Shown: positions 1,688-58,055, counted from the first letter of the stretch. The stretch is 64,000 bases of DNA from Candidatus Ozemobacteraceae bacterium (GCA_036567845.1 DATCTT010000027.1:11-64010), one strand, 5' to 3'. Notes: generated from the sequence alone by a model not told the origin. Numbers and translations: made by a program.

Positions 1688-1871
1688 CGGTTTCCGGGGC
1701 AGGTGCCGGCCGGAATGGCGGCTATCTGAGACATCCGTGCCGTTCGAGGGGATAGATCCGAGGTCACAACCGGCCCGGGCATTGACGGGTTCCGGTTTCA
1801 TTCCTATAATTGATACAACGTTGTACACCCGACCCGGAAAAATCCGCTCCAGAAGGGAATGGAGGTTGCAT

Positions 1872-8062: not shown

Positions 8063-10675
<2,613 letters not shown>

Positions 10676-21237: not shown

Positions 21238-21291
21238 TCTACCCCGGATTCGGAAATGTTTACAGGGGGTGACGGCCTCGGGGACGGCAGA

Positions 21292-41100: not shown

Positions 41101-41302
41101 CCGCGGCGGCCTTACGGGTGTAGGTGATCGCGACCAGCTCCATCGGCAGGATTCCCTGGCGGAGCAGGGCCACGATGCGTCGTGTCAGGACCTCGGTCTT
41201 GCCAGAGCCCGCTCCGGCAGCGATTTTCAGAAATCCGGCAGACGGCTCGCGAACGGCATCCTGTTGCTCGGGGTTCAGCCCGGTAAGGAGGTCAGTCAGC
41301 AT
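38192..41302 (-). CDS. UvrD-like helicase plus C-terminal RecB-type PD-(D/E)xK nuclease with a 4-Cys (Fe-S) cluster; second subunit of an AdnAB/AddAB-type helicase-nuclease
   Basis: Walker A AGAGSGKT. Nuclease IIDYKSHAF. Cys ligands YEQCPRRYFF ... CSTCAFAALC. 1036 aa, overlapping the upstream paralog by 11 nt. Confidence 0.85.
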   Translation of the reverse strand: MLTDLLTGLNPEQQDAVREPSAGFLKIAAGAGSGKTEVLTRRIVALLRQGILPMELVAITYTRKAAAEMKERLAHPARGLTASVLRNLQVSTFHAFLGDLLRRDPFGAGIDRGDTVLTEGGRRLLLADLLEEFRAAHADALLEGPEAFGPDQAHHVTSLFPGLLGHVRRFLLSPGGFQRFTDERFARRGTPPSPLEKRVQIWFFRFYSRYLQKLGERHLLDFDEILLRSSALIADQRAAGSDPAQRVFLIDEFQDNNQEQFGIIRTFVDGREGHITVVGDEKQSIYRFQGADIRTFHAFPATRTIWLNQNYRSVQEILTLADRYISRNIENPPPPQTADRGASTRPRPIACLLAAAPGSSEEAETIADLIQTLVRGGLAIETRQGKRPAAYGDFAIIVHSVNRLPRAYEDALLVRGIPYVMAGGLGFYARHEIAAVVAFLRLLVRPTDDLSLATILTGPQYGLSDAELSALFHDRREEHVSLLAHLLALPESVLPERVRSFRRLFVRLQGMSGTLGILDLVHAVLEQAGFLEHAAAQTDDLRRRRLENNLAKFVGIVRAFEANGVFTTLRDFLAYHDRTIESGVDEDEAGLGLEEGEAVKILTIHKSKGLEFPVVFLPNLHTRTFKREQGLFMTRDQGLVVHRKECEGSPEAEIRAVFDAEQVANSAEERRKLYVALTRARDLLVISGSETDIDKPGQPIGELAGMLRADETLGSVDALAEWPTVAERWLAAGTASSAPATPLPSQPADGVDLTPQITALTGRFLRLREEASRPRRVAGSGVSEEIYSLGDLDAYEQCPRRYFFQRRHIAPLAGPSESGRGPAVGNLVHRTLRLYHEGNVSALPDDVRRDRLFGLLDRLVPLHGEEGAAGRDRAAALLASYLASPLAATDAAHLEAEVNLRLEVTGTSDQDGPFLLRGFADRIDLRDGEVYIIDYKSHAFSPAAHAVYARQLALYLAAARRGLFGKSGALAFASAALAYLTETSVRIEPVDPDLPAFERSATELVARIRGERAWQPPAEAPCSTCAFAALCAKPPA

Positions 41303-44300
41303 CGTCGGAAGCCTCCTGCGTGGAATCGGGTGTCGGGAGGCGGAGCTGGTCGAGCCGTTCCTGGCAGAATGGTTGGAATTCGCAGTGCTTTGTCGGTGAA
41401 CGGTTGATGCAGGACATTGCCGAGGCCGCCGGAGAAGGATGGCAGTCGAACACCCGTTCTGAAACGATCCTTTCCATGAGCCGCTCCAGGGTGTCGCTGA
41501 AGGTGGCGAACTGGTCGGGTGTGACCTGGACGGCCCATTCGGGGCCTGCGCCCAGTCCGAGCATCGCCGATTTCAAAAAACCCGGCTGGAAGCCATTGTA
41601 TTTCCTTTTATATAGATCATCCTTCGGATACACGGTGCCGGCACACACCCGTTCATGGCCCAGCTGGCGCGCGGCAAGAAGATAGAAGGGAAGTTGGATT
41701 TCGGATGGCGGGCCGGATTCCGGGAATGCCTCGCGCAGCATCGAGGCGGCCGACTTTGCCGAACCCGTCTTGTAGTCGATGATCCAGATCGTGCTGTCCG
41801 CATCCTCGAGCCACCGGTCGATCCGCCCTTTGCAGGGATATCCGCGGAACTCGAACCGGAACCCCGCCTCGACGCCGATGGTGCCGGTCGCCGGAATCTG
41901 GCCGTTGACGTAGACGGCTTCGCGATACCGGTTCAGAATTTCCCGGGCCTGGCCGTCATACTGCTTCCGCTGGAGCACGGGGAGCTGGCCGAGAAGTGGC
42001 ACACCATGGGACCTCCAGAGGGCTTCCAACTCATCAAATCTTGGCGATCGGCCGCCCGCGAAGGTTCCAGCCGGGTCATGCAGAGCCTGGAGGCACGCGT
42101 GGATCGCGTTTCCGAAGATGAGCGCGGGTTGCCGCTCGATCCGGTCGTCGCGCAGGCGGAGGACGTGACGGTAGAAGAACCGTCGGGGACAGTCGATGAA
42201 ATCGCGAAGCGCCTGGGCAGAAAACCGGAATCCCGCGGGCAGTTCGGCCGGACAGGGGGGGGCAATTCCGAATCGGCGTGGTTTCAGAAGATCCCTGTCT
42301 GCTTCATCCGTGTCGGAGATTGCGTGGACGGCTTCAGACAGGCCCTGCAGGCCGGACTCCAGGCTCAGGCGCTCCTCCGGGGACAACCGGGCCAGGTGGG
42401 TGCGGAGTTCGCCGATCGTCAGGATTCGCTGTTCATGCCAGTCACGGTGGGGGTGAAGACCGAGTTCGTCCAGGAACGGCGCCGGCAGGGCGGGGTCGGT
42501 TCCGATGCGGCGGGGCATCGTGAGGATCAGCCCTTCTTCGGCCCGCGTCAGGGCAACATACAGCAACCGGCGTTCCTCTTCGAGATGGTCGGCGTGATCG
42601 GCGGGGTAGGGGTTGAAGAAGCGGATCTCCCTGTCACTTGCGTCGATCGCTTTCTGCACCGCGGCCAGGCCGGCCGAGCCGATCAGGAGGTTCTCGCGGA
42701 GGCGGACGGGGAACTGGTCCTCGCAGAGTCCCGTCACGAACACCACGGGAAACTCGAGCCCTTTCGACTGGTGGACCGTCATCAGCCGCACCCCCGGCGC
42801 TGCCGGGGCCACGTCGGCTGCCGGCTCATCCTCCTGTTCGAGGGTCGATGCGTAATACGTGAGCCACTCATCGAAGCTCGGCATCAGATCAGCGGCGACG
42901 GGGGGGCGGCCAAACTGTTTTTCCCGGACGTCGCAGAAATCGTCAATCATGTTCCGGAACCGCATGACATGCCGTGCTCCGGGAGACGCCGGGTCGGCGA
43001 CGAGATGCGGAACGGCGAGTAGAAGCCGGGCGAATAGGGTGACGAGCGGAAGGCCGATTCCGTCATGCAGGAGGCGCAGGGTCTCGCGGAACGCGATGAG
43101 CCGGGTGACTGTGTCCGGGGTGGGAGGGACGAAACCGTCGGGAAGCGGTTCGTCAGGCGGGCGGTCGAGCCAGGCGTCGAGTGCGGTCTCGAGAGCCGCC
43201 CCGGGGGGAAGGGCGGCGAGATACTGCTGGACCCAGATGGGGTCGAGGCCAAAAACGGGGGAGGCGAAGGCCCGCCGCAGAGGTTGCTCTCGGGCTTCCT
43301 CCGGACCTGCCGTCGCCTGGAGCAGCGAGGCGAGCGCCGTCACCTCTTCGGACCGAAAAAATTTCATATCACCGGCTATATCAAAAGGGATATGCATTGC
43401 CCGGAGAGCCTCAGACAACAGATCGATCTGGTAATTGTTCCGGACCAGGATCGCGATTTCGCCGGGGGTGAAGCACCGATGGGTCCCGTACGTGAGCAGT
43501 GAGGCGATGCGGCGGGCGATCATGCGCGCCTCGTCGAGCTCGTCACGGGCCTCGAGCAGCTCGACGAAGCCCTGACGGCTGCTGCGCGCCACAAGGCCGC
43601 CCGGGCTTCCGCCGGAAGGGGGACTTTTGGGGGCAAGCTCCTGCGACCAGTGCAGGTTGGAGGCCAGGGCGAGAATGTCGGCGGCGCTGCGGTAGTTGCC
43701 GCCGAGTGAAAACAGACGGGCTTTGAACTCGCGTCGGAAGGCGCTGCGCGAACCCATCATACCTGGATCCGCCCCGCGGAACCGGTAGATGCTCTGCAGT
43801 GGGTCGCCGATCACCGCGATGCGGGGGGGCGGCACCTCGTCCGGGCTTTTCAGCAGCCGGAGAAGGAGATACTGGGCCGGGTCGGTGTCCTGAAACTCGT
43901 CGACGAGGACGACCCGGAACCGGTCGCGATACCGGGCGGCCGTGTCGGGATCGCGGAGAGCCTGGATCGAGAACGAGATCAGATCGCGGAAATCGAGGTA
44001 GCCGGTCCGGACCCGCTCCTCCTCATACCGCCGGTACAGATGCAACAGCTCGTCGAGACGCTGCCTGGCCATGGAGGGCGGTGGATGGGCGGTGATGGCC
44101 TGTTGGAGCTGGTCGGGAGTCACGAGATTCGATTTGAGCAGCGAGATGAACGTGAGCACTTCGAGCTGGAAACCGCGTTTGGTGAGCACCCGGCCGAACA
44201 CCGGGAAGGTTTCCGGAGTCAGTCGTGCACAGATGCCCGCCATCAGCAGGGCTTCCTTGAAGCCCGTGAGCAGTCGGAAATCCGGCCTGATGCCAACCAG

Positions 44301-44603
44301 GTGATACCGCTCGCGAAGCAGGCGGGCACAGAACGAGTGGAACGTTGAGATCCAGCACTCGTCGTAGCTGTGGGGGTGGTATTCCATGACCCGCCCCCGG
44401 AGTTCGCGTGCGGCCTTTTCCGAGAAGGTCAGGGCAAGAATCTCGCGGAGCCTGGTGCCTTCAGAGAGCAGGCGGCCGATCAGCACTGCAATGGTCCGGG
44501 TCTTGCCGGTGCCGGGGCCGGCGACGATCATTGTGGGCCCCTTGAACCCGCGGATGATGGCCTTCTGTTCGTCGTTCAGTCGGTCGAAGTCTTCGGAGAG
44601 CAC
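41292..44603 (-). CDS. UvrD-like helicase plus C-terminal RecB-type nuclease with a 4-Cys cluster; first subunit of an AdnAB/AddAB-type helicase-nuclease
   Basis: Walker A AGPGTGKT, DEFQDTD (motif II). Nuclease IIDYKTGSAKS. Cys ligands FIDCPRRFFY ... CINRSPTKHCEFQPFC. 1103 aa. Confidence 0.85.
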   Translation of the reverse strand: MLSEDFDRLNDEQKAIIRGFKGPTMIVAGPGTGKTRTIAVLIGRLLSEGTRLREILALTFSEKAARELRGRVMEYHPHSYDECWISTFHSFCARLLRERYHLVGIRPDFRLLTGFKEALLMAGICARLTPETFPVFGRVLTKRGFQLEVLTFISLLKSNLVTPDQLQQAITAHPPPSMARQRLDELLHLYRRYEEERVRTGYLDFRDLISFSIQALRDPDTAARYRDRFRVVLVDEFQDTDPAQYLLLRLLKSPDEVPPPRIAVIGDPLQSIYRFRGADPGMMGSRSAFRREFKARLFSLGGNYRSAADILALASNLHWSQELAPKSPPSGGSPGGLVARSSRQGFVELLEARDELDEARMIARRIASLLTYGTHRCFTPGEIAILVRNNYQIDLLSEALRAMHIPFDIAGDMKFFRSEEVTALASLLQATAGPEEAREQPLRRAFASPVFGLDPIWVQQYLAALPPGAALETALDAWLDRPPDEPLPDGFVPPTPDTVTRLIAFRETLRLLHDGIGLPLVTLFARLLLAVPHLVADPASPGARHVMRFRNMIDDFCDVREKQFGRPPVAADLMPSFDEWLTYYASTLEQEDEPAADVAPAAPGVRLMTVHQSKGLEFPVVFVTGLCEDQFPVRLRENLLIGSAGLAAVQKAIDASDREIRFFNPYPADHADHLEEERRLLYVALTRAEEGLILTMPRRIGTDPALPAPFLDELGLHPHRDWHEQRILTIGELRTHLARLSPEERLSLESGLQGLSEAVHAISDTDEADRDLLKPRRFGIAPPCPAELPAGFRFSAQALRDFIDCPRRFFYRHVLRLRDDRIERQPALIFGNAIHACLQALHDPAGTFAGGRSPRFDELEALWRSHGVPLLGQLPVLQRKQYDGQAREILNRYREAVYVNGQIPATGTIGVEAGFRFEFRGYPCKGRIDRWLEDADSTIWIIDYKTGSAKSAASMLREAFPESGPPSEIQLPFYLLAARQLGHERVCAGTVYPKDDLYKRKYNGFQPGFLKSAMLGLGAGPEWAVQVTPDQFATFSDTLERLMERIVSERVFDCHPSPAASAMSCINRSPTKHCEFQPFCQERLDQLRLPTPDSTQEASDDAD

Positions 44604-46562: not shown

Positions 46563-46696
46563 ACGGGTTCCCTCCCTCTTGACCGGGATATTCTATCACA
46601 AGGGCAGCGGTGCTTGACTTGAAGCCGTCCGGTCGGGCACACTTTGCACAAGCACGGGCTATGCCCGTCGGGATACTGCCGCATCAGGAGGCGAAC

Positions 46697-47101
46697 ATGA
46701 AATTCATCGGGGCCGACACGCACAAGTGCGTGGGAGCGAAGAGCTGCGAGAAGACCTGCGCCAGGACGTTTTTCAAGACCGAGGATGTGGCGTATTCGGC
46801 GATCCGTGTCACGCGCACGAAAGACGGGTGGGACATCAACGTCTGCAACCAGTGCGGCAAATGCATCGAGATCTGCCCGGAGAAGGCCATTTCGCGGAAC
46901 AGGGCCGGCACCGTCGTGATCGACAAGTCCCTGTGCGTCGGCTGCTTCATGTGCGTCGGCTTTTGCCCGACGCTGTCGATGCGCGTGGCGCCCGGCGGTC
47001 GTGAGCCGTTCAAGTGCGTTTCCTGCGGCGCCTGTGCCAAGGCTTGCCGAAGCTGTGCCCTGACCCTGAGTGAGCGCGATCACGCGCAGCTGCCGTCTTG
47101 A
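46697..47101 (+). CDS. 4Fe-4S ferredoxin-type protein (probable electron-transfer partner of AOR)
   Basis: RBS CAGGAGG. CNQCGKCIEICP and CVGCFMCVGFCP (two CxxCxxCxxxCP motifs), plus extra Cys pairs. 134 aa. Confidence 0.75.
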   Translation: MKFIGADTHKCVGAKSCEKTCARTFFKTEDVAYSAIRVTRTKDGWDINVCNQCGKCIEICPEKAISRNRAGTVVIDKSLCVGCFMCVGFCPTLSMRVAPGGREPFKCVSCGACAKACRSCALTLSERDHAQLPS

Positions 47102-47126
47102 CGGATCGAGGAGAGGAGTGAATAAT

Positions 47127-49322
47127 ATGATAGACTATACTAAACGGACCTCGTATCTGGGTGATCTGGAAAAGCAGCGAGGCGCTCACCGGCTCGTCTT
47201 CGAGGGGAGCTTCAAGCCGGGACTGCCTGAGCGCGGCTACAACAACCGCACGCTGTTCATCAACCTCTCGACGAAGACCATCACCGAAAAGCCGGTGACG
47301 GAACAGATGAAGGAGATCTTCATCGGCGGCCGCGGCTTCGGTCTCTGGTATCTCTGGAATGCTGTCACCCCAAAGACCCGCTGGAACGACCCCGAGAACG
47401 AGATCGTCATCAGCCCCGGGCCCCTCGGCGGCAACACGCAGTATCCGGGTTCCGGCAAGTCGCTCGTCGTCTCCCTGTCGCCACTCACCGACATTCCGAT
47501 CGACAGCAACGTCGGCGGGCATTTCGGGCCCCTGCTGAAGTTCAGCGGCTTTGATGCCCTCGAGATCCAGGGAAAGGCGGATGCTGACGTCGTCATCTTC
47601 ATCGACGGGCAGAAGGGGGTCATCCGGGTCGAGGAGGCACCGCTCGAAAGCGTCGACAGCCATATCGCCGCGGATATATTCACACACATGTATGCCGAGA
47701 ACGAACTGGACCGGCGGAACATCTCGGTCATCGCTTCGGGCAAGGGCGCCGATCATGCCCTGATGGGCTGTCTGAACTTCTCCTGGTATGACCACCGGCG
47801 CGGCGTTGCGCGGCTCAAACAGGCCGGTCGGGGCGGCATCGGAACGGTGTTCCGGAACAAGAAGGTCAAGGCTGTTGTCGTGCGCGGCCCGGCCGTCAAG
47901 GGCGACATGAACCGTCCCGCCGATCTGGACCGGGTGCGCAACACCGGCATCCGGTTGCATCGCGAGATCCACGATAACGATGACAAGCAGTGCCACATGC
48001 GGACACAGGGCACCGCCCACCTCGTCGAGGTGATGAGTGACTACGATCTGCTGCCGGTCTGCAACTTCCAGTATGGTTCCCACGACGATGTAAAAAATAT
48101 CGCATCGTATAAATGGGGCGAACGGTTCACCCAGGGAATTCCCGACGGCTGCTGGCATGGCTGCTCGATGGGCTGCTCGAAGGGCGCCGACGGCCATATC
48201 GTGAAGACGGGGCCCTACAAGGGCCACTCCGTCACGGTCGACGGTCCGGAATACGAGACGGCTGCCGGTCTCGGGTCGAACTGCGGCATTTTCGACCGCG
48301 ACTGGATCCTCGAGGGCAACTTCTACTGCGACACCTACGGCATCGACACCATCTCGTTCGGCACGAGCTGCAGCTTCGTGATGGAGTGCTGGCAGCGTGG
48401 CATCCTGAATGCCGAGCGCACCGGCGGGGTCGAGCTGACGTGGGGCAATGGCGAGGCGCAGATGGAGCTGCTGCACCAGATGGCTCGCAACGAGGGGTTC
48501 GGGGCGATCGTCGGCCAGGGTGTCGCCCGCATGAAAAAACTGTTCATCGAAAAAGGTTGGGGGGATCCGAAACTGATCGAGGATATTGGCATGGAGGCGA
48601 AGGGCCTCGAATACTCCCAGTATCTCTCGAAGGAGTCCCTGGCGCAGCAGGGCGGTTATGCCCTGACCAACAAAGGGCCGCAGCACGATGAGGCCTGGCT
48701 GATCTTCATGGACATGGTCAACAACCAGCTGCCTACATTCGAGGACAAGGCAGAGGCCCTGCATTACTTCCCGATGTTCCGCACCTGGTTCGGTCTGAAC
48801 GGCCTGTGCAAACTGCCCTGGAACGACGTCGAACCGGATGACAACCGCAAGGTCAATAGTCCGATGGAGGCGGCGAAAGTGCCGGCCCATCTGCAGAACT
48901 ACTGCGATCTCTTCTCCGGCATCACCGGCCGCGAGATGAACCGCGACGAGCTGGTCTTCATGTCCGAGCGGGTCTACAACTTCCAGCGCGTTTTCAACCT
49001 GCGCATGGGAAAGGGGCTGCGCAAGTTCGACCAGGCGCCCTACCGCTCGACCGGCCCTGTCACCCGCGAGGAGTATGAATCGCGCGCCGAGCGGTATGAC
49101 AAGCAGCTTCGGGAACAAATCGGCATCGACCCGGCCGGAAAATCCGTCGACGAAAAGATCGCTCTCCACCGGAGATGGCGCGAAGATCGGTATCAGAAGC
49201 TCTGTGATGCCGTCTACAAGCGCCGCGGCTGGACAAAGGATGCCGTGCCGACCCTCGAGACCCTGAAAAAACTCGGCATCGATTTCCCCGACGTCGTAGA
49301 GGTCGTCAAAAAGTATCTCTGA
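47127..49322 (+). CDS. Aldehyde:ferredoxin oxidoreductase family (tungsten/molybdopterin) enzyme
   Basis: RBS GAGGAGAGGAG. N-terminal AOR_N IFIGGRGFGLWYLW. Length 731 aa, with a C-terminal extension beyond typical AORs of about 600 aa. Confidence 0.85.
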   Translation: MIDYTKRTSYLGDLEKQRGAHRLVFEGSFKPGLPERGYNNRTLFINLSTKTITEKPVTEQMKEIFIGGRGFGLWYLWNAVTPKTRWNDPENEIVISPGPLGGNTQYPGSGKSLVVSLSPLTDIPIDSNVGGHFGPLLKFSGFDALEIQGKADADVVIFIDGQKGVIRVEEAPLESVDSHIAADIFTHMYAENELDRRNISVIASGKGADHALMGCLNFSWYDHRRGVARLKQAGRGGIGTVFRNKKVKAVVVRGPAVKGDMNRPADLDRVRNTGIRLHREIHDNDDKQCHMRTQGTAHLVEVMSDYDLLPVCNFQYGSHDDVKNIASYKWGERFTQGIPDGCWHGCSMGCSKGADGHIVKTGPYKGHSVTVDGPEYETAAGLGSNCGIFDRDWILEGNFYCDTYGIDTISFGTSCSFVMECWQRGILNAERTGGVELTWGNGEAQMELLHQMARNEGFGAIVGQGVARMKKLFIEKGWGDPKLIEDIGMEAKGLEYSQYLSKESLAQQGGYALTNKGPQHDEAWLIFMDMVNNQLPTFEDKAEALHYFPMFRTWFGLNGLCKLPWNDVEPDDNRKVNSPMEAAKVPAHLQNYCDLFSGITGREMNRDELVFMSERVYNFQRVFNLRMGKGLRKFDQAPYRSTGPVTREEYESRAERYDKQLREQIGIDPAGKSVDEKIALHRRWREDRYQKLCDAVYKRRGWTKDAVPTLETLKKLGIDFPDVVEVVKKYL

Positions 49323-49379
49323 CAATAGTTCATTCCTGCTTCCGTTTCCCTTCGGCTTTTCGAGCCGATCAGCCCGTTT

Positions 49380-49877
49380 ATGACGGCCAAACGGGCTTTC
49401 AGTGCAATTTTCGAGGGGAGCTGTCCGAAAGTCTCCGTTTCGGGGAGGAAATGCGTGCGAACGACGCAGGCGGATGTGGAGCTGCTGATGAAGCGGCTGG
49501 TGGAGCCGGTGCGGAAGATGCTTCGGGAAAGCGGAGGATTTCTTCCGTTTGGGGCGTATCTCGACACCGCCCGCCGTGTCCGGAAGTTCCAGGCCGAGGT
49601 CGATGACGCGTGGGACCAGGATGAGCTCGCGGGGTTTTTCGAGGAAAAATTGCAGGGATATGCAGCCGCGAAGAAAGCGGTCGCGACCGCCATCGTCCGC
49701 GACGTGCGTGCAGCGCCGCCCGGAAAGCGCAAGGCGGAAGACTGCGCCGCGTTTGCGCTCGATCACGTCGACGGCTACTCGGTCATCGTCTTTCTGCCGT
49801 ATGTGATCGACGAAGGCGGCAAGGTGTTGTTCGGAGAGCTGTTCGCGATCGACGGCGACAGCAGGATCTTTTCATGA
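49380..49877 (+). CDS. Hypothetical protein (165 aa)
   Basis: ORF only; no motif recognised. It lies between AOR and the ThiF-like gene. Confidence 0.35.
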   Translation: MTAKRAFSAIFEGSCPKVSVSGRKCVRTTQADVELLMKRLVEPVRKMLRESGGFLPFGAYLDTARRVRKFQAEVDDAWDQDELAGFFEEKLQGYAAAKKAVATAIVRDVRAAPPGKRKAEDCAAFALDHVDGYSVIVFLPYVIDEGGKVLFGELFAIDGDSRIFS

Positions 49878-49997
49878 GCAGATTTTGAAACCCGCTCCGA
49901 CGGTATGGGAGCAGCGCGGCGCTCGAGCGATCAAGGTTGTCGGGGGCATGCCAGGTTGATGTAGGGGCATATTTATAACCAGCCCGTCACGATATGT

Positions 49998-50873
49998 GTG
50001 AGGATTGATGCAAAGGAAAGGCATTGCGTGAAGTGCAGAATCAATGAGCGGGATGCGGAGATCGGGGGCGGGACCAGCCTTGGAAAATTGGCTGAGGCGC
50101 ACTGCCCGGGGGCGGATCTGTTCATCCTGAACGGGTGCCCCGCGGCGCCGGATACGATTCCAGGGGAAGGCGACGCGATCGTGTTCATCCGGCGCGGCGT
50201 GAAGCCGGCCCCGGAGGAGCTGGATGCTCTCCTTGCGGCTCGTCACACCCCGGGCGTACATGAAAAGCTGAAACGATCCTCGGTCGGCATCGCCGGCTGT
50301 GGCGGGCTGGGCTCGACCGTTGCCCTGGCCCTCGCCCGCGTCGGGATTGGCCGACTTGTTTTGGCCGATCACGACGTGGTCGAGCCGAGCAATCTAAATA
50401 GGCAGCAGTATTATATAGATCAGATTGGCATGGCGAAGGTCGAGGCGCTCCGGACGACGATCGCCCGAGTAAACCCGGCCATACAGGTCACGGTCTGGGG
50501 GGAACGGCTGGTGCAGCCGACGGTTGCTTCGCTCTTTGCCGGTGTAGACGTGCTGGTTGAGGCGCTCGACCAGGCCGACCAGAAGGCGATGCTGGTCGAG
50601 GCGGCGATGAAGGCCTTCCCCACCAAACCTCTCGTGTTGGGCTCCGGGATGGCGGGGTGGGGAGGGAACGAGCGCCTGCGCACCCGGATTTCCGGCACCA
50701 TGACGGTGTGCGGTGACGAGACGGCCGAGGCCGTGCCCGGCCGGGGCCTGATGGCTCCACGCGTCGGCATTGTTGCACACATGCAGGCCAACCGCGTCAT
50801 GGAACTGCTTCTCGGGCCAGATGAGGGTATCGGCCCCGAACTCGTAACAGGGAGATTCGACGAGACATGCTGA
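49998..50873 (+). CDS. ThiF/MoeB-family E1-like adenylyltransferase with an N-terminal fused ThiS/MoaD-like beta-grasp domain
   Basis: GIAGCGGLGSTVALALARVG (Rossmann GxGxxG), NLNRQ. The N-terminal 75 aa are LFILNGCP...GDAIVFIRRG, ThiS-like but with no terminal GG. Confidence 0.75.
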   Translation: MRIDAKERHCVKCRINERDAEIGGGTSLGKLAEAHCPGADLFILNGCPAAPDTIPGEGDAIVFIRRGVKPAPEELDALLAARHTPGVHEKLKRSSVGIAGCGGLGSTVALALARVGIGRLVLADHDVVEPSNLNRQQYYIDQIGMAKVEALRTTIARVNPAIQVTVWGERLVQPTVASLFAGVDVLVEALDQADQKAMLVEAAMKAFPTKPLVLGSGMAGWGGNERLRTRISGTMTVCGDETAEAVPGRGLMAPRVGIVAHMQANRVMELLLGPDEGIGPELVTGRFDETC

Positions 50874-51064
50874 AAGTCAACGGCGAGCCGCTGAAATACC
50901 AGAAAGACATGACCGTTTCCGACGTCATCCGGGCGAAGAAATACTCGTTTCCTTTGTTGATCGTGAAGATCGATGGCGTCTACATTCCGCGCGAAAGCTA
51001 CGACATCACCCCCGTCCCGGACGGCGCCACCCTCGACATTATCCATCTCATCAGCGGCGGTTGA
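50867..51064 (+). CDS. ThiS/MoaD-family ubiquitin-like sulfur-carrier protein (C-terminal Gly-Gly)
   Basis: 65 aa, MLKVNGEPL...DGATLDIIHLISGG. It overlaps the E1-like gene by 7 nt. Confidence 0.7.
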   Translation: MLKVNGEPLKYQKDMTVSDVIRAKKYSFPLLIVKIDGVYIPRESYDITPVPDGATLDIIHLISGG

Positions 51065-51168
51065 GCCGTCCCGGTTGCGATTTTCCGGCGTTCTAAGTAC
51101 GCTTGAATGTCCACCACTCGACAACCCAGACATTTCCTTCCAAATTTCAGCCGAGGAGCGCGACATTG

Positions 51169-52263
51169 ATGAGCGACACGCCCGTCTTTCCCGAAATAAT
51201 CTTCGATACAGACCCCCTGGGCCTGGCCGATAAGATGGCCCCCCTTTCCCCGACCGTCGACATCATCATCGAATCCGATGCTGAAGCGGCCGTTGAGGAG
51301 GAGATCTCGTTCGGTCTCCCGACCCCGGAAGGCGAGATCATGGAGACGAGAGGACGGGTGAAAGCGGTTGCGCCACGCGAGGGCGGGTATGCCCTGACGG
51401 TCGAGATACGGGAAGTCGATGCTGCCATGCGAGGGACGGCCCATTCCAGTCTCAGGGGAACGGCGAAGCCTGCCGCTGGTGGCCTTCAGCCGGTCTGGGG
51501 AATCGGGCTGAAGCAGACCGACAACACCTATGCGATTCTGGTCAACAGCCCGGCCGGCGTGCTCACAGCAGCTCAGCTGAGCAAACTGGGCGAGCTGGCG
51601 GCCCGGGGGACGGGCGTGGCCAAGCTCACCCACGCCCAGCGGGTTATTCTTCTGGCGCCCATGGAGCGGCTCGAGGCGATTCGCGCCGAGCTCGACCAGG
51701 TCGGTCTTCGCGTCGGCGTGCTCCATAAGGGGGTCAGGAATGTGCGGGCGTGCTGTGGTGCGCGTTGTCGCTTCTCCGATCGCACCGATGCCATCGGAAC
51801 CGCCCTGGCAATCGACAAAGTCCTGTACGGGCGCGGGGAGACCTTCGATGTCAAGCTGGCGATCTCGGATTGCATGCGCAATTGCTCCGAAAGCTACTGT
51901 TGCGACATCGGACTGCTGGGAGGCGGAGGGAAATACCGCATGGTCGTCGGCGGTCGCGGCAGTCAGATCCCTTTCCGGGCTCTCCATCTTGCCGGCGATA
52001 TCGAGCCGTCCGACGTTCCGGCGGCCGTTGCCGAAGTCCTCGACTGGTACGAGCAAAACGCCCGCGAAGGGGAGCGATTCTGGAAAATGATGGTGCGGCT
52101 TGGCGAGGCCGAAGCTGCCAGGTTCGGTCTGGCTGATATTGCAGTAGCTATGGAAAAGCTCGGAGACGGGGTCGACGAAGTGCGACGGCTCCGGGAACAG
52201 CTGGCCCGGCTCGCCACGCTCCACCGCATGAAGAACGAACTCCGTTTTTGCCGACCGAAGTGA
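51169..52263 (+). CDS. Nitrite/sulfite-reductase-like Fe-S protein (ferredoxin-like half-domain plus 4Fe-4S/siroheme-type Cys motif) with an unassigned ~120-aa N-terminal extension
   Basis: RBS GAGGAG. RACCGARCRF and CMRNCSESYCCD Cys clusters are spaced like NIR_SIR Fe-S/siroheme ligands. A GIGLKQTDNTYAILVNSPAGVLTAAQLSKLGELA ferredoxin-like half-domain precedes them. Confidence 0.7.
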   Translation: MSDTPVFPEIIFDTDPLGLADKMAPLSPTVDIIIESDAEAAVEEEISFGLPTPEGEIMETRGRVKAVAPREGGYALTVEIREVDAAMRGTAHSSLRGTAKPAAGGLQPVWGIGLKQTDNTYAILVNSPAGVLTAAQLSKLGELAARGTGVAKLTHAQRVILLAPMERLEAIRAELDQVGLRVGVLHKGVRNVRACCGARCRFSDRTDAIGTALAIDKVLYGRGETFDVKLAISDCMRNCSESYCCDIGLLGGGGKYRMVVGGRGSQIPFRALHLAGDIEPSDVPAAVAEVLDWYEQNAREGERFWKMMVRLGEAEAARFGLADIAVAMEKLGDGVDEVRRLREQLARLATLHRMKNELRFCRPK

Positions 52264-52275
52264 GGAACTGAGAAG

Positions 52276-54432
52276 ATGCCCGTTGGAAGCCACAAAGACG
52301 CATTCAAGGCCCATCAGCTGGTCAAAAAACTCGTTGCCAAGGACGGGGCAACTCCGCTGCCGACGCTTGCCGCAGAGATCCTCATGGATTTCGTCAAGAG
52401 TCAGCGGCAGATCAACCAGCGGGAGTCGGCGACGCACCTCCCGACGGATCAGAATGTGTATGACCAGGAGAAGCTGAAGGCTGCTCTCGAAGCCGTGGGC
52501 AGCTTGTGCGGCCAGTGCGAGGAAGCTCATAACGACGCCTGTTTCGTCAATCAGGCACGCCGCGTCCTGATCGCTGCCAGGACCGGCGTCGATCTGGGCC
52601 AGGCCTTCGACGGCAAGAAGAGCCTCGATGAGCTGGTGCGGGAGGCCGAGCGTCTCGCTGCCGAACGGGCGGCCGCCCCCCCGGAGACAGCCGCTGCGAG
52701 CGCCGGGACCACTCCCGTTTCCGGAGAGACGGACGCGGCTGCGACCGGAAGGCTGCGTCAGGAGCTTGCTTCCCTTCAGGAAAGGGAAGTGTTCCGCAGC
52801 ACGCTGATCGACGAGATCGTCGATACCATCGGCAAGGTGTCCGCGGGCAACTATGCTGCGAAAATGCCGGTGCATGAAGATGAGCAGCTCGGCAAGCTCG
52901 CGACGTCGTTCAATCTCATGCTTGATGCGATGAACGCGACGATGTCCCACCTCGATCACCTCGTGAACGCTCGGAACGCCGAGCTGAAGCAGATCATGAA
53001 CACCGTGCCGCTGGGCCTGCTCTCGCTGAACGCCGAGCTCCGGGTGAATCCGGAATACTCCCGGACCGCCGCCCTGATCTTCGGCGTGGACGAACTGCGG
53101 GGCCGCGATTACCCAGAACTGCTCGGACTTACGCCGCGCCGCCAGGAAGAGCGGAATGCGCTGAAGGATTATCTCGACATCCTTCTGATGGGCATCGACT
53201 GTCCCGACGCCGATCGCCTCAACCCCTTCGCCGAAATCCTGCTGCCCCGGGGTGTCTGGGTGCGTCTCCGTTATCATCTCGTGCAGACCGAGTCCGGGCA
53301 GGGGAACCTCCTCGTTGTCGTGGAGGACGTCACCGAGACGAAGAAGCTGGAAGCCCGGGTTGAAGCGACTCAGCGCGAAAGTGCCCAGATCAAGGCGATT
53401 GCCGAGGCTCCCGATCTGTTCCGCGACGTTATCGCCGACAATCAGAAGATTCTCGATCAGACCATCACCCTGCTTGATGGGAATGGCCCGGCATCCTCTC
53501 AGGAACGGATCGATGCCATGTTTCGGGGTGTCCATACGGTCAAGGGGGTGGCCGGAAGCTTTGGCATGTCCGAAGTCGGAAAGCAGGCGGGAATTCTCGA
53601 AAATGCCCTGGCCCGGGCGCGCGATCTCGGCTCCCTGACCACGGAACGGACGGAGGAGATCCGCCGCGAGCTCGGCCTTCTCGGCGAGGCGATGGGGGAC
53701 GTGAAAAAACTGGCGAAGCTCATTTTAGGGGATGATTCCCTGACCGGCGGCCCGGCTCTGAAGGTGTCCCTCGAGCAGCTGCAGGAACTCGAGCGCGAGA
53801 TGCGGGACGCGGCGGTGGACGAAGGGGTCCGCGCGCGTATGCTCGGCAAGATCCGTGACCTGCGGCTCGTCCCGGCGAAGAAAGCCCTGGAGCGCACGAT
53901 CCGTCTCGTTCCGGGGCTGATTTCCCGACTCAACAAGCAGGTGTCCTTCCGCCTCGAGGGCGAGGACGTTCCGTTGCCGGTTGAACTTGCGCAGAACCTG
54001 AACGGTCCTTTGATCCACCTTATCCGGAACGCGTTCGACCACGGTGTCGAGGACGAGGAACTGCGGCGCGGTGCCGGAAAGCCGGAGCAGGCGTCGGTCG
54101 CTCTCACCATTCACCGGCGGGAGCGCTGGATCGAAGTGGCCGTATCAGATGACGGCAAGGGGCTCGACCCTGAGGTGCTCCGGGCCAGCGCCATCCGCAA
54201 GGAGCTTCTCTCCCCGGAGGAGGCCGGGAATTTGTCGGCGGAAGCGTGTCTCAACCTGATCTTCCTTCCCGGCTTCTCGACGGCAGCTTCGGTCACCGAG
54301 ATCTCCGGGCGGGGTGTTGGGATGGATGTCGTCCAGACTGAAATCGCAAACATGGGCGGGCGGATCACCATTGATTCGACACCGGGAAAAGGGTCCCGGT
54401 TCACCCTGCACGTTCCGATAGCCTGCTCCTGA
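52276..54432 (+). CDS. Cytoplasmic CheA-like histidine kinase: Cys-containing N-domain - HAMP - sensor region - HPt - HATPase_c; no CheW-like P5 domain
   Basis: HAMP IDEIVDTIGKVSAGNYAAKMPVHEDEQLGKLATSFNLMLDAM. HPt FRGVHTVKGVAGSFG. HATPase N-box IRNAFDHGVED, G-boxes DDGKGLD and SGRGVGMDVV. N-terminal CGQCEEAHNDAC. No TM segments. Confidence 0.8.
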   Translation: MPVGSHKDAFKAHQLVKKLVAKDGATPLPTLAAEILMDFVKSQRQINQRESATHLPTDQNVYDQEKLKAALEAVGSLCGQCEEAHNDACFVNQARRVLIAARTGVDLGQAFDGKKSLDELVREAERLAAERAAAPPETAAASAGTTPVSGETDAAATGRLRQELASLQEREVFRSTLIDEIVDTIGKVSAGNYAAKMPVHEDEQLGKLATSFNLMLDAMNATMSHLDHLVNARNAELKQIMNTVPLGLLSLNAELRVNPEYSRTAALIFGVDELRGRDYPELLGLTPRRQEERNALKDYLDILLMGIDCPDADRLNPFAEILLPRGVWVRLRYHLVQTESGQGNLLVVVEDVTETKKLEARVEATQRESAQIKAIAEAPDLFRDVIADNQKILDQTITLLDGNGPASSQERIDAMFRGVHTVKGVAGSFGMSEVGKQAGILENALARARDLGSLTTERTEEIRRELGLLGEAMGDVKKLAKLILGDDSLTGGPALKVSLEQLQELEREMRDAAVDEGVRARMLGKIRDLRLVPAKKALERTIRLVPGLISRLNKQVSFRLEGEDVPLPVELAQNLNGPLIHLIRNAFDHGVEDEELRRGAGKPEQASVALTIHRRERWIEVAVSDDGKGLDPEVLRASAIRKELLSPEEAGNLSAEACLNLIFLPGFSTAASVTEISGRGVGMDVVQTEIANMGGRITIDSTPGKGSRFTLHVPIACS

Positions 54433-54493: not shown

Positions 54494-56371
54494 TTACAGA
54501 TCCATTTCCCAGGACACGGCCAGGCGCCGGCCGGGCTCGCCATATCCGTAGATCCTCTGGGAACGCGTGTTGGCGATGTTCAGCAGGGCCAGCCGGAACG
54601 TGCCACCGTGGAACCGGCTCAGATAGCCGATATCCGTGCGATCCGTCGGTGAGACGGAACGGGTGTTTCCGGCATCGTCCCAGCTCGCCCCCCACCGGGC
54701 ATACCGCGCAAACACCTCGCCGTTTCCGGCAGGATGACGCAGAGTCAGGGCTCCGGCATGCCCCGGTACGCGGGGCAGGGTGCAGCCTGAGCTCAGGATC
54801 CGGGCCCGGGGCGTGCGGGAATACTCGAACTCCATGCGGCAGCGGCCGCTGGACATCCGCACGTCAAGTTCGTGGCCGGTGATTTCGGCGGTTTCCAGGT
54901 TCGCCGCCTTGATCCCCCAGGCATAGGCCGGGTCCGTCGTGGCGACGGTTCCGATGAGATTGTCGGCGCGTGTCCGGTAGCTGCGCACCTCGATGATGCC
55001 ATCGGTACCTGCCCGCTGGGTAAGCGCGAGCGAGAGAGTGCGCCCTGTCTCGGGGGCCAGGTGCTCGTCGCCGTAGTTCGGGTAGAACCGTTCATTGAGC
55101 GACGGACGCCGGAAGGAAGTTCCCCAGGCGGCTTCCAGACTGCGTTTGCCCTGCTCCCGGGAAAGGGCGAGCTTGCCCGTCGCGGCGGTGTCGCCGGGGT
55201 TTGTATAACGATCGATACGTCCGATCGACCGGAGCTTCCAGCCGGCTGCCGGGCTCCAGGAAACCCCGCCCCGAAGCGCATCATCTGCCTCATTCCGCTC
55301 GAGGATGCCGTCGTTCGATGCGTCCGTTTCCTGATGTGAAACGCCCAGGTCGATCTCGCCGCGCGACAGATACCAGAACCGGTCGATCGCCTGCTGGTGC
55401 GTGAGAGAGTGCATGTCATACCCGTTCCAGGGATCTGTCGGATCATCCCCGGCAAGAACCGCGTCACGCCGGCCGGCCGTGTACTGCCACTCCCCGTCCG
55501 GAAGGGGCCGCGCGATGTGCAGATTCATCGTCGATTCCGACCGGTGCTGGATGAAGTCGGGATCGTCGACAGGGGCTGAAGTGATCGGGGAAAACGTGTC
55601 CAGGGCCGTGTCCGACGAACGCCAGCCGAGAAGGAATCGGACGGCAGTGCCGTTGGTCGATCGGCTCTGGATGCCGATCTGCAGGCGCTCCTGCTCGAAC
55701 GGATCCGTTTCGGCATTGCCCTGCCGTCCGTCGGCAGCCGACCAGCCCTGAGTCCGGAAGGTCATCCCGGAAACCCCCAGAGTGGCATCCCCAAGCGCCA
55801 ATGCCGCGTTCAGCTCGCGGCCGTTTCCCCCAACTCCGTCTGAAAACAGGCGAATACTCGAAGTGGCCGGAATGGCGGTTCGGAGATGGAGGACCCCCCC
55901 GATGGCGTTGCTGCCCCACCAGGATGCGCCTGAACCGCGGTACACCTCGACGGAATCGAGGAGCCCCGGGTCGATGTCGCCCAGGTCGGGATTGCCCGTG
56001 AAGGGGTCGTTCACCGGCATGCCGTCACGCAGAACGAGCACGCGCGCGCCGGTGAAGCCTCCCAGCATCGGACTGGCGAGCCGCCCCGGCCCGCCCTGGG
56101 GCGGAGTCACGAGCACGCCGCCCCCCAGAGCCTCGGGGCCGGTCGTCGGTAGAAATCTGCCGATATCCTCCGCCCCGGCACGGGAGACGGCATCGCCGAC
56201 GAGCTCGCACGGCGGCTTCCACGCCGGTGCCGTCACCGTGACCGTTGGAAGCTGCACGACCGGCTGGGAAGCTGTTACGGCGGGCAGACCGGTGGTCGGG
56301 TGGACCAGGAATGCCAACATCGGCAGCAGAAAACGGGAAAAGCGGGAAATGAAACGATGGAAAACGAGCAT
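54494..56371 (-). CDS. TonB-dependent receptor-like outer-membrane protein (plug domain clear; start uncertain; atypical C-terminal residue)
   Basis: Plug motifs RVLVLRDGMPVNDPFTG and EVYRGSGASWWGSNAIGGVLHL. Candidate starts at 56476, 56425 and 56371 (GAGGTG RBS before 56371, then a signal-like MLVFHRFISRFSRFLLPMLAFLV). It ends ...SWEMDL rather than an aromatic residue. Confidence 0.65.
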   Translation of the reverse strand: MLVFHRFISRFSRFLLPMLAFLVHPTTGLPAVTASQPVVQLPTVTVTAPAWKPPCELVGDAVSRAGAEDIGRFLPTTGPEALGGGVLVTPPQGGPGRLASPMLGGFTGARVLVLRDGMPVNDPFTGNPDLGDIDPGLLDSVEVYRGSGASWWGSNAIGGVLHLRTAIPATSSIRLFSDGVGGNGRELNAALALGDATLGVSGMTFRTQGWSAADGRQGNAETDPFEQERLQIGIQSRSTNGTAVRFLLGWRSSDTALDTFSPITSAPVDDPDFIQHRSESTMNLHIARPLPDGEWQYTAGRRDAVLAGDDPTDPWNGYDMHSLTHQQAIDRFWYLSRGEIDLGVSHQETDASNDGILERNEADDALRGGVSWSPAAGWKLRSIGRIDRYTNPGDTAATGKLALSREQGKRSLEAAWGTSFRRPSLNERFYPNYGDEHLAPETGRTLSLALTQRAGTDGIIEVRSYRTRADNLIGTVATTDPAYAWGIKAANLETAEITGHELDVRMSSGRCRMEFEYSRTPRARILSSGCTLPRVPGHAGALTLRHPAGNGEVFARYARWGASWDDAGNTRSVSPTDRTDIGYLSRFHGGTFRLALLNIANTRSQRIYGYGEPGRRLAVSWEMDL

Positions 56372-56487
56372 GGGGCCGCGCCACCTCTGAAAAAAATACC
56401 GCGCTCCCCGGGCCGGAGACGCCATGCGTCGTCTGTTCGGCACGATCTCCCGATCCGCGAGGAGTCGCGTGCTCATCCGACAGGTAT

Positions 56488-56650
56488 TCCGGCTCCCGGA
56501 TCATCCTCCCGCCGGCCCTTCCCACCCTTGCGGGTAGTGGCTTGCCGGCGTTTGTCCCCGATTACGGCGACGGGCTCGCGCAGGTGTTTCACCTGCTTCC
56601 CTGCTGGCCTGCGGTCAGGCCATGGCGATGAGGCCCTCTGGATACCACAA
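56488..56650 (-). ncRNA. Candidate cobalamin (B12) riboswitch in the leader of the TonB-dependent receptor gene
   Basis: The minus-strand leader reads ...GGGAAgcAGGTGAAAcACCTGcgcgagcccgtcgccGTAAtcgg...gcaaGCCACTacccgcaagGGTGGGAAGGccggcgggaggatgatCCGGGAGCCGGaa. This matches the conserved GGGAA/GGTGAAA/GTAA core and the CCACT...GGGAAG plus B12-box-like elements of E. coli btuB. Confidence 0.5.
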
Positions 56651-56728
56651 CCGGCCCCTCCGTGCAAGAACCCGTTCTGTGCCGGAGACCCCCTGTGGTA
56701 GGATGGATCGGTCGGAAGGGAGGGAAGT

Positions 56729-58055
56729 CGTGAGCGGCCAGGCCGATGACGCCATGCATGCGGGGACGGTGATGCCCGTTCAGAACGATGCCCTGCTGCC
56801 CGAGGTGCGTCGAGAGATCAACGCCACCCTGCGGCCGGCATTCCTGGTCGGGGCGCTGTTTGGCATCTTCGCCGGAGCCTTCATGCTGATCATCCATTGG
56901 GTCGGCCTCATGCCCGATATGGCCATTCCGGCGCTGTGGGCATTCGTGTGCGGGATCACGGTGCTTGGCCTGTATCTGCTGGCCAGGCACGATGCCATTC
57001 CTGCCGTCCGGCCGTGGATCGTGGTGCTGCCGCTGGTTTCTCTGCCGACGATCATTTTCGTGGTTTCCTGGTTGATCCTCCCGGGTGGCACCGCCACCTA
57101 CCTGACGGGACCGCCCTCCTATCTGTATTTCTTTCTCGTCGTGCTGACGGGGTTCTGGATGCAGGCGCGTGTTTCCATCGGGGCAAGTATCTTTGCCGCA
57201 GCGCAGTTCATCGTCGCCTACCAGTTCGCCCGGGAGCATCTGCAGCATATTTCTGGCCCCGATGCGCTGTTCCTGCAGGATCTGAAGGACCCGGTCCTGT
57301 GGGGCTTCAAGGCTGTCATGCTGGTGCTGACCGGGATCGCGGTTGGCGTGTTGTCGCGCTCGGCCCGCCGGCTGATCGGTCGGATGATCGACAAGGAGCG
57401 GGAGCGGGCCTCGCTCGACCGGCTGTTCGGCCAGTATGTCAGCCCGGCCGTGCGCGACCGGCTGATGACCTCTGAGGCTGTCCGGGGCGAGATGCGCGAT
57501 GTCGCGGTCCTTTTCTGCGATATCCGCTCGTTCACCACGATGTGCGAGGGCATGTCGCCGGCTGCCGTCGTCGAGCATCTCAACCGGTATCTCGATGAGA
57601 TGGTCGCCTGCATCCAGGCGGAGGGGGGCGTCATCGACAAGTTCATCGGGGATGCGATCATGGCCACCTTCGGCGGGGTCGCGCCGCTCGAGGCGCCTGC
57701 CGCTTCGGCCGTGAAGGCTGCCCTGATGATGCAGAAGGAACTGGTTGTCCTCCGCTCCGACTGGACGCTCCAGAATCTTCCGCTTCTCCGGTCGGGAATC
57801 GGCATCCATTACGGCCCGGTTCTGCTCGGCCCAATCGGCAGCGAACAGCGTCGCGAGTTCACGGTTATCGGCGACACCGTGAACACCGCTTCCCGGCTGG
57901 AAACACTGACAAAAGATCACGCCTGCTCGATCATCTTTTCTGATGCCGTTTTTGAGGCTTTGTCCCCCGATCTTCGGCAGGGATTTACCGAGCTGGGGAC
58001 GGTGCCGGTCAAGGGGCGAACCGCGCCTGTCCGGATTTTCGGCAACAGGGATTGA
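56729..58055 (+). CDS. Membrane-anchored class III adenylate/guanylate cyclase (6-TM N-domain plus CYTH-less cyclase homology domain)
   Basis: Cyclase motifs VLFCDIRSFT, KFIGDAIMATFG and GDTVNTASRLE. The N-terminal about 200 aa have 6 hydrophobic helices. GTG at 56729 after GGAAGGGAGGGA; alternative ATG starts lie downstream. Confidence 0.8.

Follow-up and report, generated by a model that had tools for sequence, protein, structure and literature searches.

A 64-kb window (the whole stretch of 64,000 nucleotides analysed here) from a metagenome-assembled genome (MAG) of Candidatus Ozemobacteraceae (Riflebacteria) contains two adjacent genes, A and B, which encode a small sulfite-reductase-like protein (SiRL) and a soluble signalling kinase. 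We consider, with a probability somewhat better than one half (about 0.55), that this pair is an autonomous two-protein signalling module, in which SiRL is the receptor, the N-terminal domain of the kinase (N-domain) with its HAMP region is the transducer, and a CheA-type kinase is the output. The first-pass annotation of this DNA had likewise preferred a signalling input module to a metabolic reductase, and that preference held up, since only the two genes are conserved together, the N-domain and HAMP region stay constant while the output domain changes, basic residues of the substrate pocket are lost and our literature search turned up nothing on the pairing. Strict coupling to a transducer with HAMP, an interchangeable output and the lack of conserved metabolic neighbours make up the signature of an accessory sensor, and because the module carries this signature, SiRL is favoured as the receptor.

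Both genes share one reading frame, and gene B starts 12 nucleotides (nt) after gene A, as had been read originally. Between them, no terminator-like site was found on the + strand in a promoter/terminator scan that was uninformative overall. The features of the pair, in window coordinates, are the following.

51169-52263, + strand: gene A, open reading frame (ORF) of 364 amino acids (aa) from ATG; SiRL, with a single sulfite/nitrite-reductase repeat
51169-51468, + strand: N-terminal beta-rich domain of SiRL, residues ~1-100, specific to the family
51511-51699, + strand: NIR_SIR_ferr half-domain, residues 115-177 (PF03460, E = 3.9e-9, 36.5 bits, cutoff 24)
51730-52113, + strand: NIR_SIR 4Fe-4S/siroheme domain, residues 188-315 (PF01077, E = 5.4e-12, 45.9 bits, cutoff 27)
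52114-52260, + strand: C-terminal helical tail of SiRL, residues 316-364, with a conserved GDGVDE...R segment
52264-52275, + strand: intergenic spacer of 12 nt, read as ggaactgagaag and preceded by the tga stop of gene A
52276-54432, + strand: gene B, ORF of 718 aa; soluble signalling kinase with N-domain, HAMP, PAS-like, Hpt and CheA-type P4 regions
52276-52674, + strand: kinase N-domain, residues 1-133, five helices
52507-52542, + strand: C78-x2-C81-x3-H85-x3-C89 motif, candidate metal or redox site, invariant in 50 sequences of all output classes
52729-53004, + strand: HAMP region, helices 152-189 and 203-243
53005-53400, + strand: tentative PAS-like region, residues ~244-375 (sub-threshold PAS_4, E = 0.021)
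53416-53670, + strand: Hpt (P1-like) domain, residues 381-465, with His420 at 53533-53535 (PF01627; matches to CheA P1 in the PDB)
53842-54423, + strand: CheA-type ATP-binding P4 domain, residues 523-716 (4xiv/1i5d)

A longer form of gene A, starting at TTG 51103 (386 aa), is not supported, the homologues and the public gene call starting at the ATG. The gene A product has a 100%-identical copy in the database. The entry for the gene B product (P0059), listed as 100% identical, differs at residue 170, where it reads LQEWEVF and the window reads LQEREVF, a single R/W difference between assemblies.

The coupling of the two genes was determined by a genome scan with one genome per species, which gave 33 SiRL loci. 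These belong to Riflebacteria, Planctomycetota, Verrucomicrobia, Victivallales, deltaproteobacterial lineages (Desulfobacterales, Syntrophobacteraceae, Desulfatirhabdium) and Wallbacteria, so that the pair spans at least six bacterial groups. In all 31 genome loci with downstream sequence (31/31), a gene encoding the N-domain lies downstream of SiRL on the same strand, and the gaps range from overlapping start and stop codons to about 160 nt. Conservation in relatives, on which the original proposal depended, was therefore found in every informative genome locus and also in every informative metagenome locus other than those of the HD-GYP type described below. An all-versus-all ORF comparison of the loci revealed no further conserved neighbour, the other families being shadow ORFs of the opposite strand, and a Pfam scan of the two neighbours on either side gave nothing recurrent; Response_reg occurred in 4 of the 56 downstream neighbours, and the families that recurred in the scan of 50 upstream neighbours did not include it. 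Our literature search turned up no account in which a SiR-like protein is linked to a kinase or acts as a sensor, in agreement with the earlier remark that the pairing was not recognised as a described system.

Several lineages show additional features at these loci. In three Wallbacteria-type loci (L022:4163-5407, L023:7517-8770 and L027:7568-8812), a lineage-specific gene of about 415 aa directly follows the kinase gene. A Radical_SAM domain with a 4Fe-4S single-cluster domain was found in three downstream neighbours, probably these ~415-aa genes, as the scan names no members. Two MAGs labelled Desulfatirhabdium butyrativorans (L026, L029) carry SiRL, with a PP2C-type partner downstream in L026. 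This species is a cultured sulfate reducer, and these hosts are a possible route to work in a cultivable organism.

The constant partner of SiRL is not the whole kinase, it is the first ~240 residues (N-domain and HAMP), and the output varies. The homologues of gene B comprise full-length orthologues, fusions of the N-domain to PP2C/SpoIIE, fusions to HD-GYP or HisKA, and CHASE4 proteins that share the core; across fusions to different outputs, the N-domain and HAMP region are 45-54% identical. Each of the genes with PP2C/SpoIIE output (L018, L026, L036, L060) or HisKA output (L031) is preceded by SiRL; in L036, the SiRL upstream of the PP2C version is broken by frameshifts. The reverse test, in which metagenomes were scanned with the N-domain alone, gave 42 loci. 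Full-length SiRL was directly upstream in 18 of the 18 kinase-type loci with at least 1.1 kb of upstream sequence and in the sole informative PP2C-type locus (L060), two further kinase-type loci carried a partial SiRL at the contig edge, and four loci with shortened N-domain genes had SiRL sequence upstream. Since a search of a word-indexed database with the N-domain returned 6 fragments only, HMMER was run exhaustively against 1.84 billion representatives instead; this run found the N-domain in only 23 clusters, and no fusion of N-domain to SiRL among them. One metagenome, Ga0272440, contributed 15 kinase loci that are 74-93% identical and for the most part have syntenic flanks in common (with UvrC on the upstream side in the locus examined and a metallo-beta-lactamase-fold gene on the downstream side). 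An expansion of paralogues was considered for these and rejected, as the syntenic flanks point to orthologues from related populations.

SiRL itself belongs to the NIR_SIR family, as first assigned, with both Pfam matches exceeding their gathering thresholds. The motifs CCGARC, CMRNCSESYCCD and CGQCEEAHNDAC are all present with their key residues invariant in both families, and the cysteine motifs quoted originally were thus recovered. Residues 1-105 have no match in Pfam or NCBIfam; an unassigned N-terminal extension had been claimed, and this stands, but its length is ~105 aa instead of 120 and it forms a beta-rich domain. In the AlphaFold2 (AF2) model, obtained with the 33-sequence family alignment at a predicted local distance difference test (pLDDT) score of 89.3, the three-dimensional fold is that of sulfite and nitrite reductases (SiR/NiR), and three parts are seen: the beta-rich N-terminal domain (~1-95), the SiR repeat and the helical tail (320-360), with helices at 322-331 and 337-357. 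The tail has no Pfam match, and the protein has no hydrophobic stretch fitting a transmembrane helix. The family is sharply bounded, consisting of 39 full-length clusters (90% identity) of 354-377 aa at E <= 3e-76, all with NIR_SIR_ferr and NIR_SIR, and the next matches, at E ~ 1e-10, are NirA/CysI enzymes of the usual kind with two repeats.

For residue mapping, a profile search of PDB sequences was used to compare the SiRL family with MjFsr (7np8) and Mtb NirA (1zj8). The family aligned to MjFsr residues 336-485 and 517-607. The cluster cysteines C195, C200, C235 and C239 are invariant and correspond to Fsr C428, C434, C468 and C472 and also to the NirA ligands; C239 aligns with Cys472, the siroheme-bridging cysteine of Fsr. 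Other invariant elements are the KLTHAQR motif of the half-domain (K152, T154, H155, A156, Q157 and R158), GxRNxRxC, KxAxSDCxRNCxE, and an additional cysteine, C244. In MjFsr, sulfite is bound by R355, R423, K460 and K462, which are called perfectly conserved across sulfite reductases (PMC10229431). The equivalent positions in the 33 members of the SiRL family are as follows.

MjFsr R355: SiRL position 124, L, I or V in 33/33 (L124 here)
MjFsr R423: SiRL R190, R in 33/33
MjFsr K460: SiRL position 227, D in 29, S in 2 and N in 2 (D227 here)
MjFsr K462: SiRL K229, K in 33/33

Because the cluster ligands and R190/K229 are invariant, the cofactor-binding framework of SiRL is under strong selection. 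SiRL most likely still carries a [4Fe-4S] cluster and probably a siroheme-type cofactor. The anion-binding quartet, judged by the same alignments, is half dismantled, one position being hydrophobic and one acidic. This pattern fits a protein that retains its cofactors without standard sulfite or nitrite reduction, and the altered pocket may be taken as somewhat against a plain anion site.

These residues bear directly on the alternative that SiRL is a small reductase of the ordinary kind, serving assimilation or detoxification, whose adjacent gene is its regulator or is co-regulated with it while the two proteins do not interact. Family membership, fold and the presence of all four cluster cysteines are what such an enzyme would have, homologues are annotated as nitrite or sulfite reductase by the Joint Genome Institute (JGI), and Fsr shows that a SiR domain with one repeat can be catalytic when it forms a homodimer (PMC10229431). 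However, every member has replacements at two of the four basic positions that bind substrate, no electron-input domain is fused to SiRL, and a ferredoxin gene occurs in only 1 of 31 paired genome loci. This is the locus L019 of 'Deltaproteobacteria bacterium TL4', where a 192-aa 2x[4Fe-4S] ferredoxin gene (2356-2934) intervenes between the SiRL and kinase genes, its product being a possible electron partner of SiRL. Moreover, no transcription factor or response regulator that could control SiRL expression is linked to it, the pairing is kept when the output is a PP2C phosphatase, and a metabolic enzyme would not typically form a family of only 39 clusters whose informative loci all include an N-domain gene. 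We therefore regard an ordinary reductase as improbable.

Among enzymes of known structure, SiRL most resembles the C-terminal domain of Fsr (7np8/7npa), which has the same single NIR_SIR_ferr and NIR_SIR repeat and is a homodimer in Fsr; by this analogy, SiRL most likely functions as a homodimer. NirA (1zj8), CysI (1aop) and DsrAB are, with Fsr, its broader SiR/NiR relatives. SiRL differs from Fsr in lacking the F420H2-oxidase domain and the inserted ferredoxin domain (the latter found in Fsr and Dsr), in its CX4C spacing, in the replaced equivalents of R355 and K460, in C244, and in its own beta domain and helical tail. Moreover, SiRL is always encoded with a signalling protein and not with genes of sulfur or nitrogen metabolism.

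The gene B product is the kinase form of this partner, with about 70 full-length orthologue clusters of 712-803 aa. Pfam identified Hpt (381-465) and HATPase_c (579-715), and HAMP at a sub-threshold level (178-220). The P4 domain matched that of Thermotoga maritima CheA at E = 1e-41 in the search of PDB sequences, whereas other kinases had E > 1e-5, and its N, G1, F and G2 boxes are conserved. His420, the predicted phospho-accepting residue, is identical in at least 98% of 66 aligned orthologues. Between Hpt and P4 lies a segment of ~55 residues without family assignment. The PAS-like region is matched by PAS_9 in orthologues, and residues 178-360 align with the NCBIfam models of PnpS and WalK; besides this weak region, no recognised ligand-binding domain was found in the kinase.

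The resemblance to CheA is limited to the core. The gene B product shares with CheA the Hpt (P1) domain with its conserved His and a P4 domain 40-45% similar to that of T. maritima, but it lacks P2, P3 (H-kinase_dim) and P5 (CheW-like), and its alignment with 4xiv, a P3P4 structure, covers nothing before P4. Since only two residues follow the P4 alignment and the next gene, a convergent one, starts 62 nt downstream, there is no room for a CheW or P5 domain. Neither PF01584 (CheW) nor PF02895 (H-kinase_dim) was found in any of the ~70 orthologue clusters, while true CheAs in the same search have both. The first-pass annotation had described a CheA-like kinase with neither a CheW-like domain nor a membrane anchor: the P1/P4 core was confirmed, membership of the CheA family was not, and a frameshifted canonical CheA is excluded by the missing downstream room and by the orthologues. 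As for the anchor, the maximal 19-residue Kyte-Doolittle hydropathy is 1.28, which indicates no transmembrane helix. The absence of an adjacent receiver or CheY gene, also asserted there, extends through the 64-kb window, in which tblastn with a CheY-like query detected no receiver domain.

A group of longer kinases, of ~790 aa (P0077, P0090, P0095, P0099, P0106; L045-L057, L063, L083), has a conserved C-terminal extension of ~55 aa, 'FGYCxxCFYEF..GGY..PV...VP..LL.KWK', which is absent from the window kinase. It contains a CxxC, is not CheW and has no Pfam match, and JGI labels one example MoaD-like. These variants come from low-GC populations (0.34-0.40), including the Candidatus Magnetomorum entry P0095.

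The P1 and P4 domains, both of CheA type, are the basis for a further alternative, that gene B encodes a divergent chemotaxis CheA working in an array with methyl-accepting chemotaxis proteins (MCPs) and CheW encoded elsewhere, with SiRL as an unrelated neighbour. The H-kinase_dim and CheW core is reported to be present in all CheA sequences (PMC10782961), and the lack of P3 and P5 throughout the orthologue clusters effectively refutes this alternative. In addition, the gene B product has its own N-domain, HAMP and PAS-like input, which CheA by definition does not have, MCP, CheW and CheY genes were not found nearby, no che genes are conserved in the vicinity, and the pairing with SiRL is universal. 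We consider it extremely improbable.

The nearest paralogues of gene B are CHASE4-HAMP-PAS-Hpt-P4 kinases (P0127, P0129-P0134), which are 38-44% identical over the shared HAMP-PAS-Hpt-P4 core (73-74% of the query) and likewise have no P3 or P5. Unlike gene B, these proteins of ~880 aa carry a CHASE4 sensor, located in the membrane, where gene B has the N-domain, and they have no SiRL. In two CHASE4 loci (L037:4602-7643, L038:1930-4971), a gene for a stand-alone CheY-like receiver of 119 aa lies 40 nt upstream, a hint that P5-less CheA-like kinases may use regulators of this type.

No other part of the kinase is as conserved as the N-domain, which always stands at the extreme N-terminus. Its invariant residues are M1, G4, S5, H6, D8, F10, K17, R44 and Q45, followed by C78, C81, H85, C89, N92, R95, R96 and D106. 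In the AF2 model (pLDDT 86.7), five helices are followed by a disordered linker (134-151) and two long helices, and the Cys3-His motif sits in the loop joining helices 3 and 4. Thus, the cysteine-containing N-terminal module and the HAMP segment noted originally are both present, the former as an invariant Cys3-His motif and the latter as a module of two helices that lies between the input and output regions. The N-domain is matched by no model of Pfam or NCBIfam, and no DsrC-like fold was seen in it.

The conservation of this domain also supports a different assignment of roles, in which the N-domain is the real sensor, a Cys3-His zinc or Fe-S thiol/redox switch, and SiRL is its dedicated redox enzyme. 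In this role, SiRL would not be a co-receptor that binds a ligand; prompted by its own substrate, it would relay electrons or sulfur and thereby oxidise, reduce or modify the Cys3-His site. C78, C81, H85 and C89, as well as H6 and D8, are invariant in this most conserved part of the protein, and SiRL, whose cluster ligands are complete and many of whose basic residues are invariant, looks redox-competent; the ferredoxin gene between the pair in L019 points in the same direction. The best argument is that a nearly unchanged N-domain occurs in HD-GYP proteins without an adjacent SiRL. On the other hand, four ligands within 12 residues are compatible with a structural zinc knuckle and fit it equally well. 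Apart from DsrAB-DsrC, we know of no case in which a protein with the SiR fold acts on a thiol site of another protein, and the N-domain does not have the fold of DsrC. This alternative, which overlaps largely with the proposed module and differs from it in the coupling mechanism alone, is in our view unlikely, if less so than the other two.

Several observations weigh against SiRL as the receptor. SiRL was found beside the HD-GYP-type N-domain gene in none of the 11 metagenome loci (0/11) with at least 1.3 kb of upstream sequence, nor beside P0150, P0144 and P0147, two of which are on contigs of one metagenome. The N-domains of the HD-GYP proteins differ from SiRL-coupled ones at just two conservative positions; because they are nearly identical and stand without an adjacent SiRL, the N-domain may be a sensor in its own right. 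The first cysteine pair of SiRL is CX4C in 33 of 33 members, one residue shorter than the canonical CX5C, the cofactor content is predicted from the sequence only, and the physical contact of SiRL with the N-domain is likewise a prediction. Furthermore, no cognate response regulator was identified beside the pair or in the window, and all the sequences derive from MAGs or metagenomes.

The HD-GYP-type proteins are 429-440 aa long (L034, L039, L040, L061-L072, L079-L082), and their genes are found in unrelated housekeeping surroundings, for example beside IleRS/LspA, LepA and type IV pilin genes. A class-specific surface difference between their N-domains and the SiRL-coupled ones was looked for and rejected, the two conservative positions being uninformative. 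HD-GYP-type genes occur in low-GC populations that also carry SiRL-kinase pairs, and action of SiRL in trans on the HD-GYP proteins is possible because of this shared occurrence. Among the Candidatus Magnetomorum entries, both kinase-type and phosphohydrolase-type N-domain proteins are present.

In the two-protein module that we favour, SiRL would not be a bulk metabolic reductase; it would serve on its own as the receptor, either of a small redox-active molecule or of the redox state. Its state would be read by the Cys3-His N-domain of the gene B product, through direct docking or through electron or sulfur transfer, and HAMP would convert the signal of the N-domain into a changed output activity. 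In the present organism, this output would be autophosphorylation of His420 in the Hpt domain by the CheA-type P4, followed by phosphotransfer to an unlinked response regulator, which is probably CheY-like and consists of a single domain.

A similar arrangement is known from stand-alone hemoprotein sensors that are paired with signalling enzymes, namely H-NOX with HnoK/HaCE and NosP with NahK. In these systems, as predicted for SiRL, a small cofactor protein is encoded beside a cytoplasmic kinase or other signalling enzyme without a clear ligand-binding domain, and one sensor family is combined with different output enzymes. The differences are that SiRL is a SiR/NiR repeat and not an H-NOX or FIST fold, that its presumed cofactors are [4Fe-4S]/siroheme instead of heme b, and that its partner has HAMP together with a dedicated Cys3-His domain, for which a docking or transducer role is predicted. 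The comparison is best taken as an analogy of mechanism, not as family membership. While the logic of a stand-alone hemoprotein sensor with a kinase is already known, the two domains and the signalling use of the fold are undescribed.

On a wider scale, the SiR/NiR fold could have been recruited as a receptor, founding a class of siroheme/[4Fe-4S] stand-alone sensors that dock on a Cys3-His transducer and control kinases, phosphatases and, in trans, cyclic di-GMP phosphodiesterases of anaerobes belonging to several phyla. We put this forward tentatively, as a serious possibility that falls a little short of an even chance. Example ligands would be sulfite, sulfide, nitrite, nitric oxide (NO) or redox poise.

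Directly upstream of gene A lie five genes of the same strand (46610-51064, + strand) with gaps of at most 120 nt. They are listed here, with the gene that comes after gene B as the last entry.

46610-47101, + strand: poly-ferredoxin
47070-49322, + strand: aldehyde:ferredoxin oxidoreductase (AOR)
49380-49877, + strand: 165-aa protein without family
49998-50873, + strand: ThiS-like/ThiF fusion
50867-51064, + strand: 65-aa ThiS with a GG end
54494-56476, - strand: convergent TonB-dependent receptor, starting 62 nt past gene B

Because no terminator-like site was found on the + strand between ThiS and gene A, a single transcript of seven genes is conceivable, and the five upstream genes and genes A and B could be one transcript in the Ozemobacteraceae organism. 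A general functional link of the pair to AOR or ThiS-ThiF was rejected, since these genes adjoin it in no other locus. The TonB-dependent receptor is followed by an adenylate/guanylate cyclase gene (56622-58055, + strand), whose N-terminal ~290 residues appear hydrophobic on reading the sequence, and neither gene is conserved beside the pair in the other loci. An antisense ORF of 845 aa (50998-53535, - strand) spans both genes, and similar antisense families recur at related loci; such shadow ORFs are expected in G+C-rich coding DNA, and it was treated as not being a gene.

The genes elsewhere in the window, among them those at 8063-10675 (- strand), 31474-33675 (+ strand) and 38192-44603 (- strand), are housekeeping or unrelated. 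They include genes for ClpB, for a gingipain-like (C25) peptidase that has a propeptide, and for two adjoining UvrD/PD-(D/E)XK helicase-nucleases (AddAB-like). Four ORFs of 465-907 aa (1737-3422, 14278-17001, 18753-20150 and 20674-22128) had no Pfam match, and exact-protein look-ups of two further window ORFs gave no match. An anti-phage defence system was considered and rejected, PADLOC giving no match.

To our knowledge, there is no earlier case in which a SiR/NiR fold with its cofactors acts as the receptor of a signal and not as an enzyme; if the proposed module is correct, this would be the first known. It would also define two undescribed domains, the beta domain of SiRL and the Cys3-His N-domain. 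A CheA-type core (P1 and P4) with its own input, working outside chemosensory arrays, would bear on the evolution of the CheA architecture. Being small (two genes), soluble and self-contained, the module could be tested in vitro and is a potential biosensor part. The strict pairing suggests that anaerobes sense a redox-active molecule by a means so far undescribed, and the module, if confirmed, would give a handle on how uncultivated anaerobes sense sulfur or nitrogen oxyanions, sulfide, NO or redox state. The organisms concerned are Riflebacteria, anaerobic Planctomycetota, Lentisphaerae/Verrucomicrobia, Wallbacteria and sulfate-reducing Deltaproteobacteria, the last including relatives of the multicellular magnetotactic Candidatus Magnetomorum.

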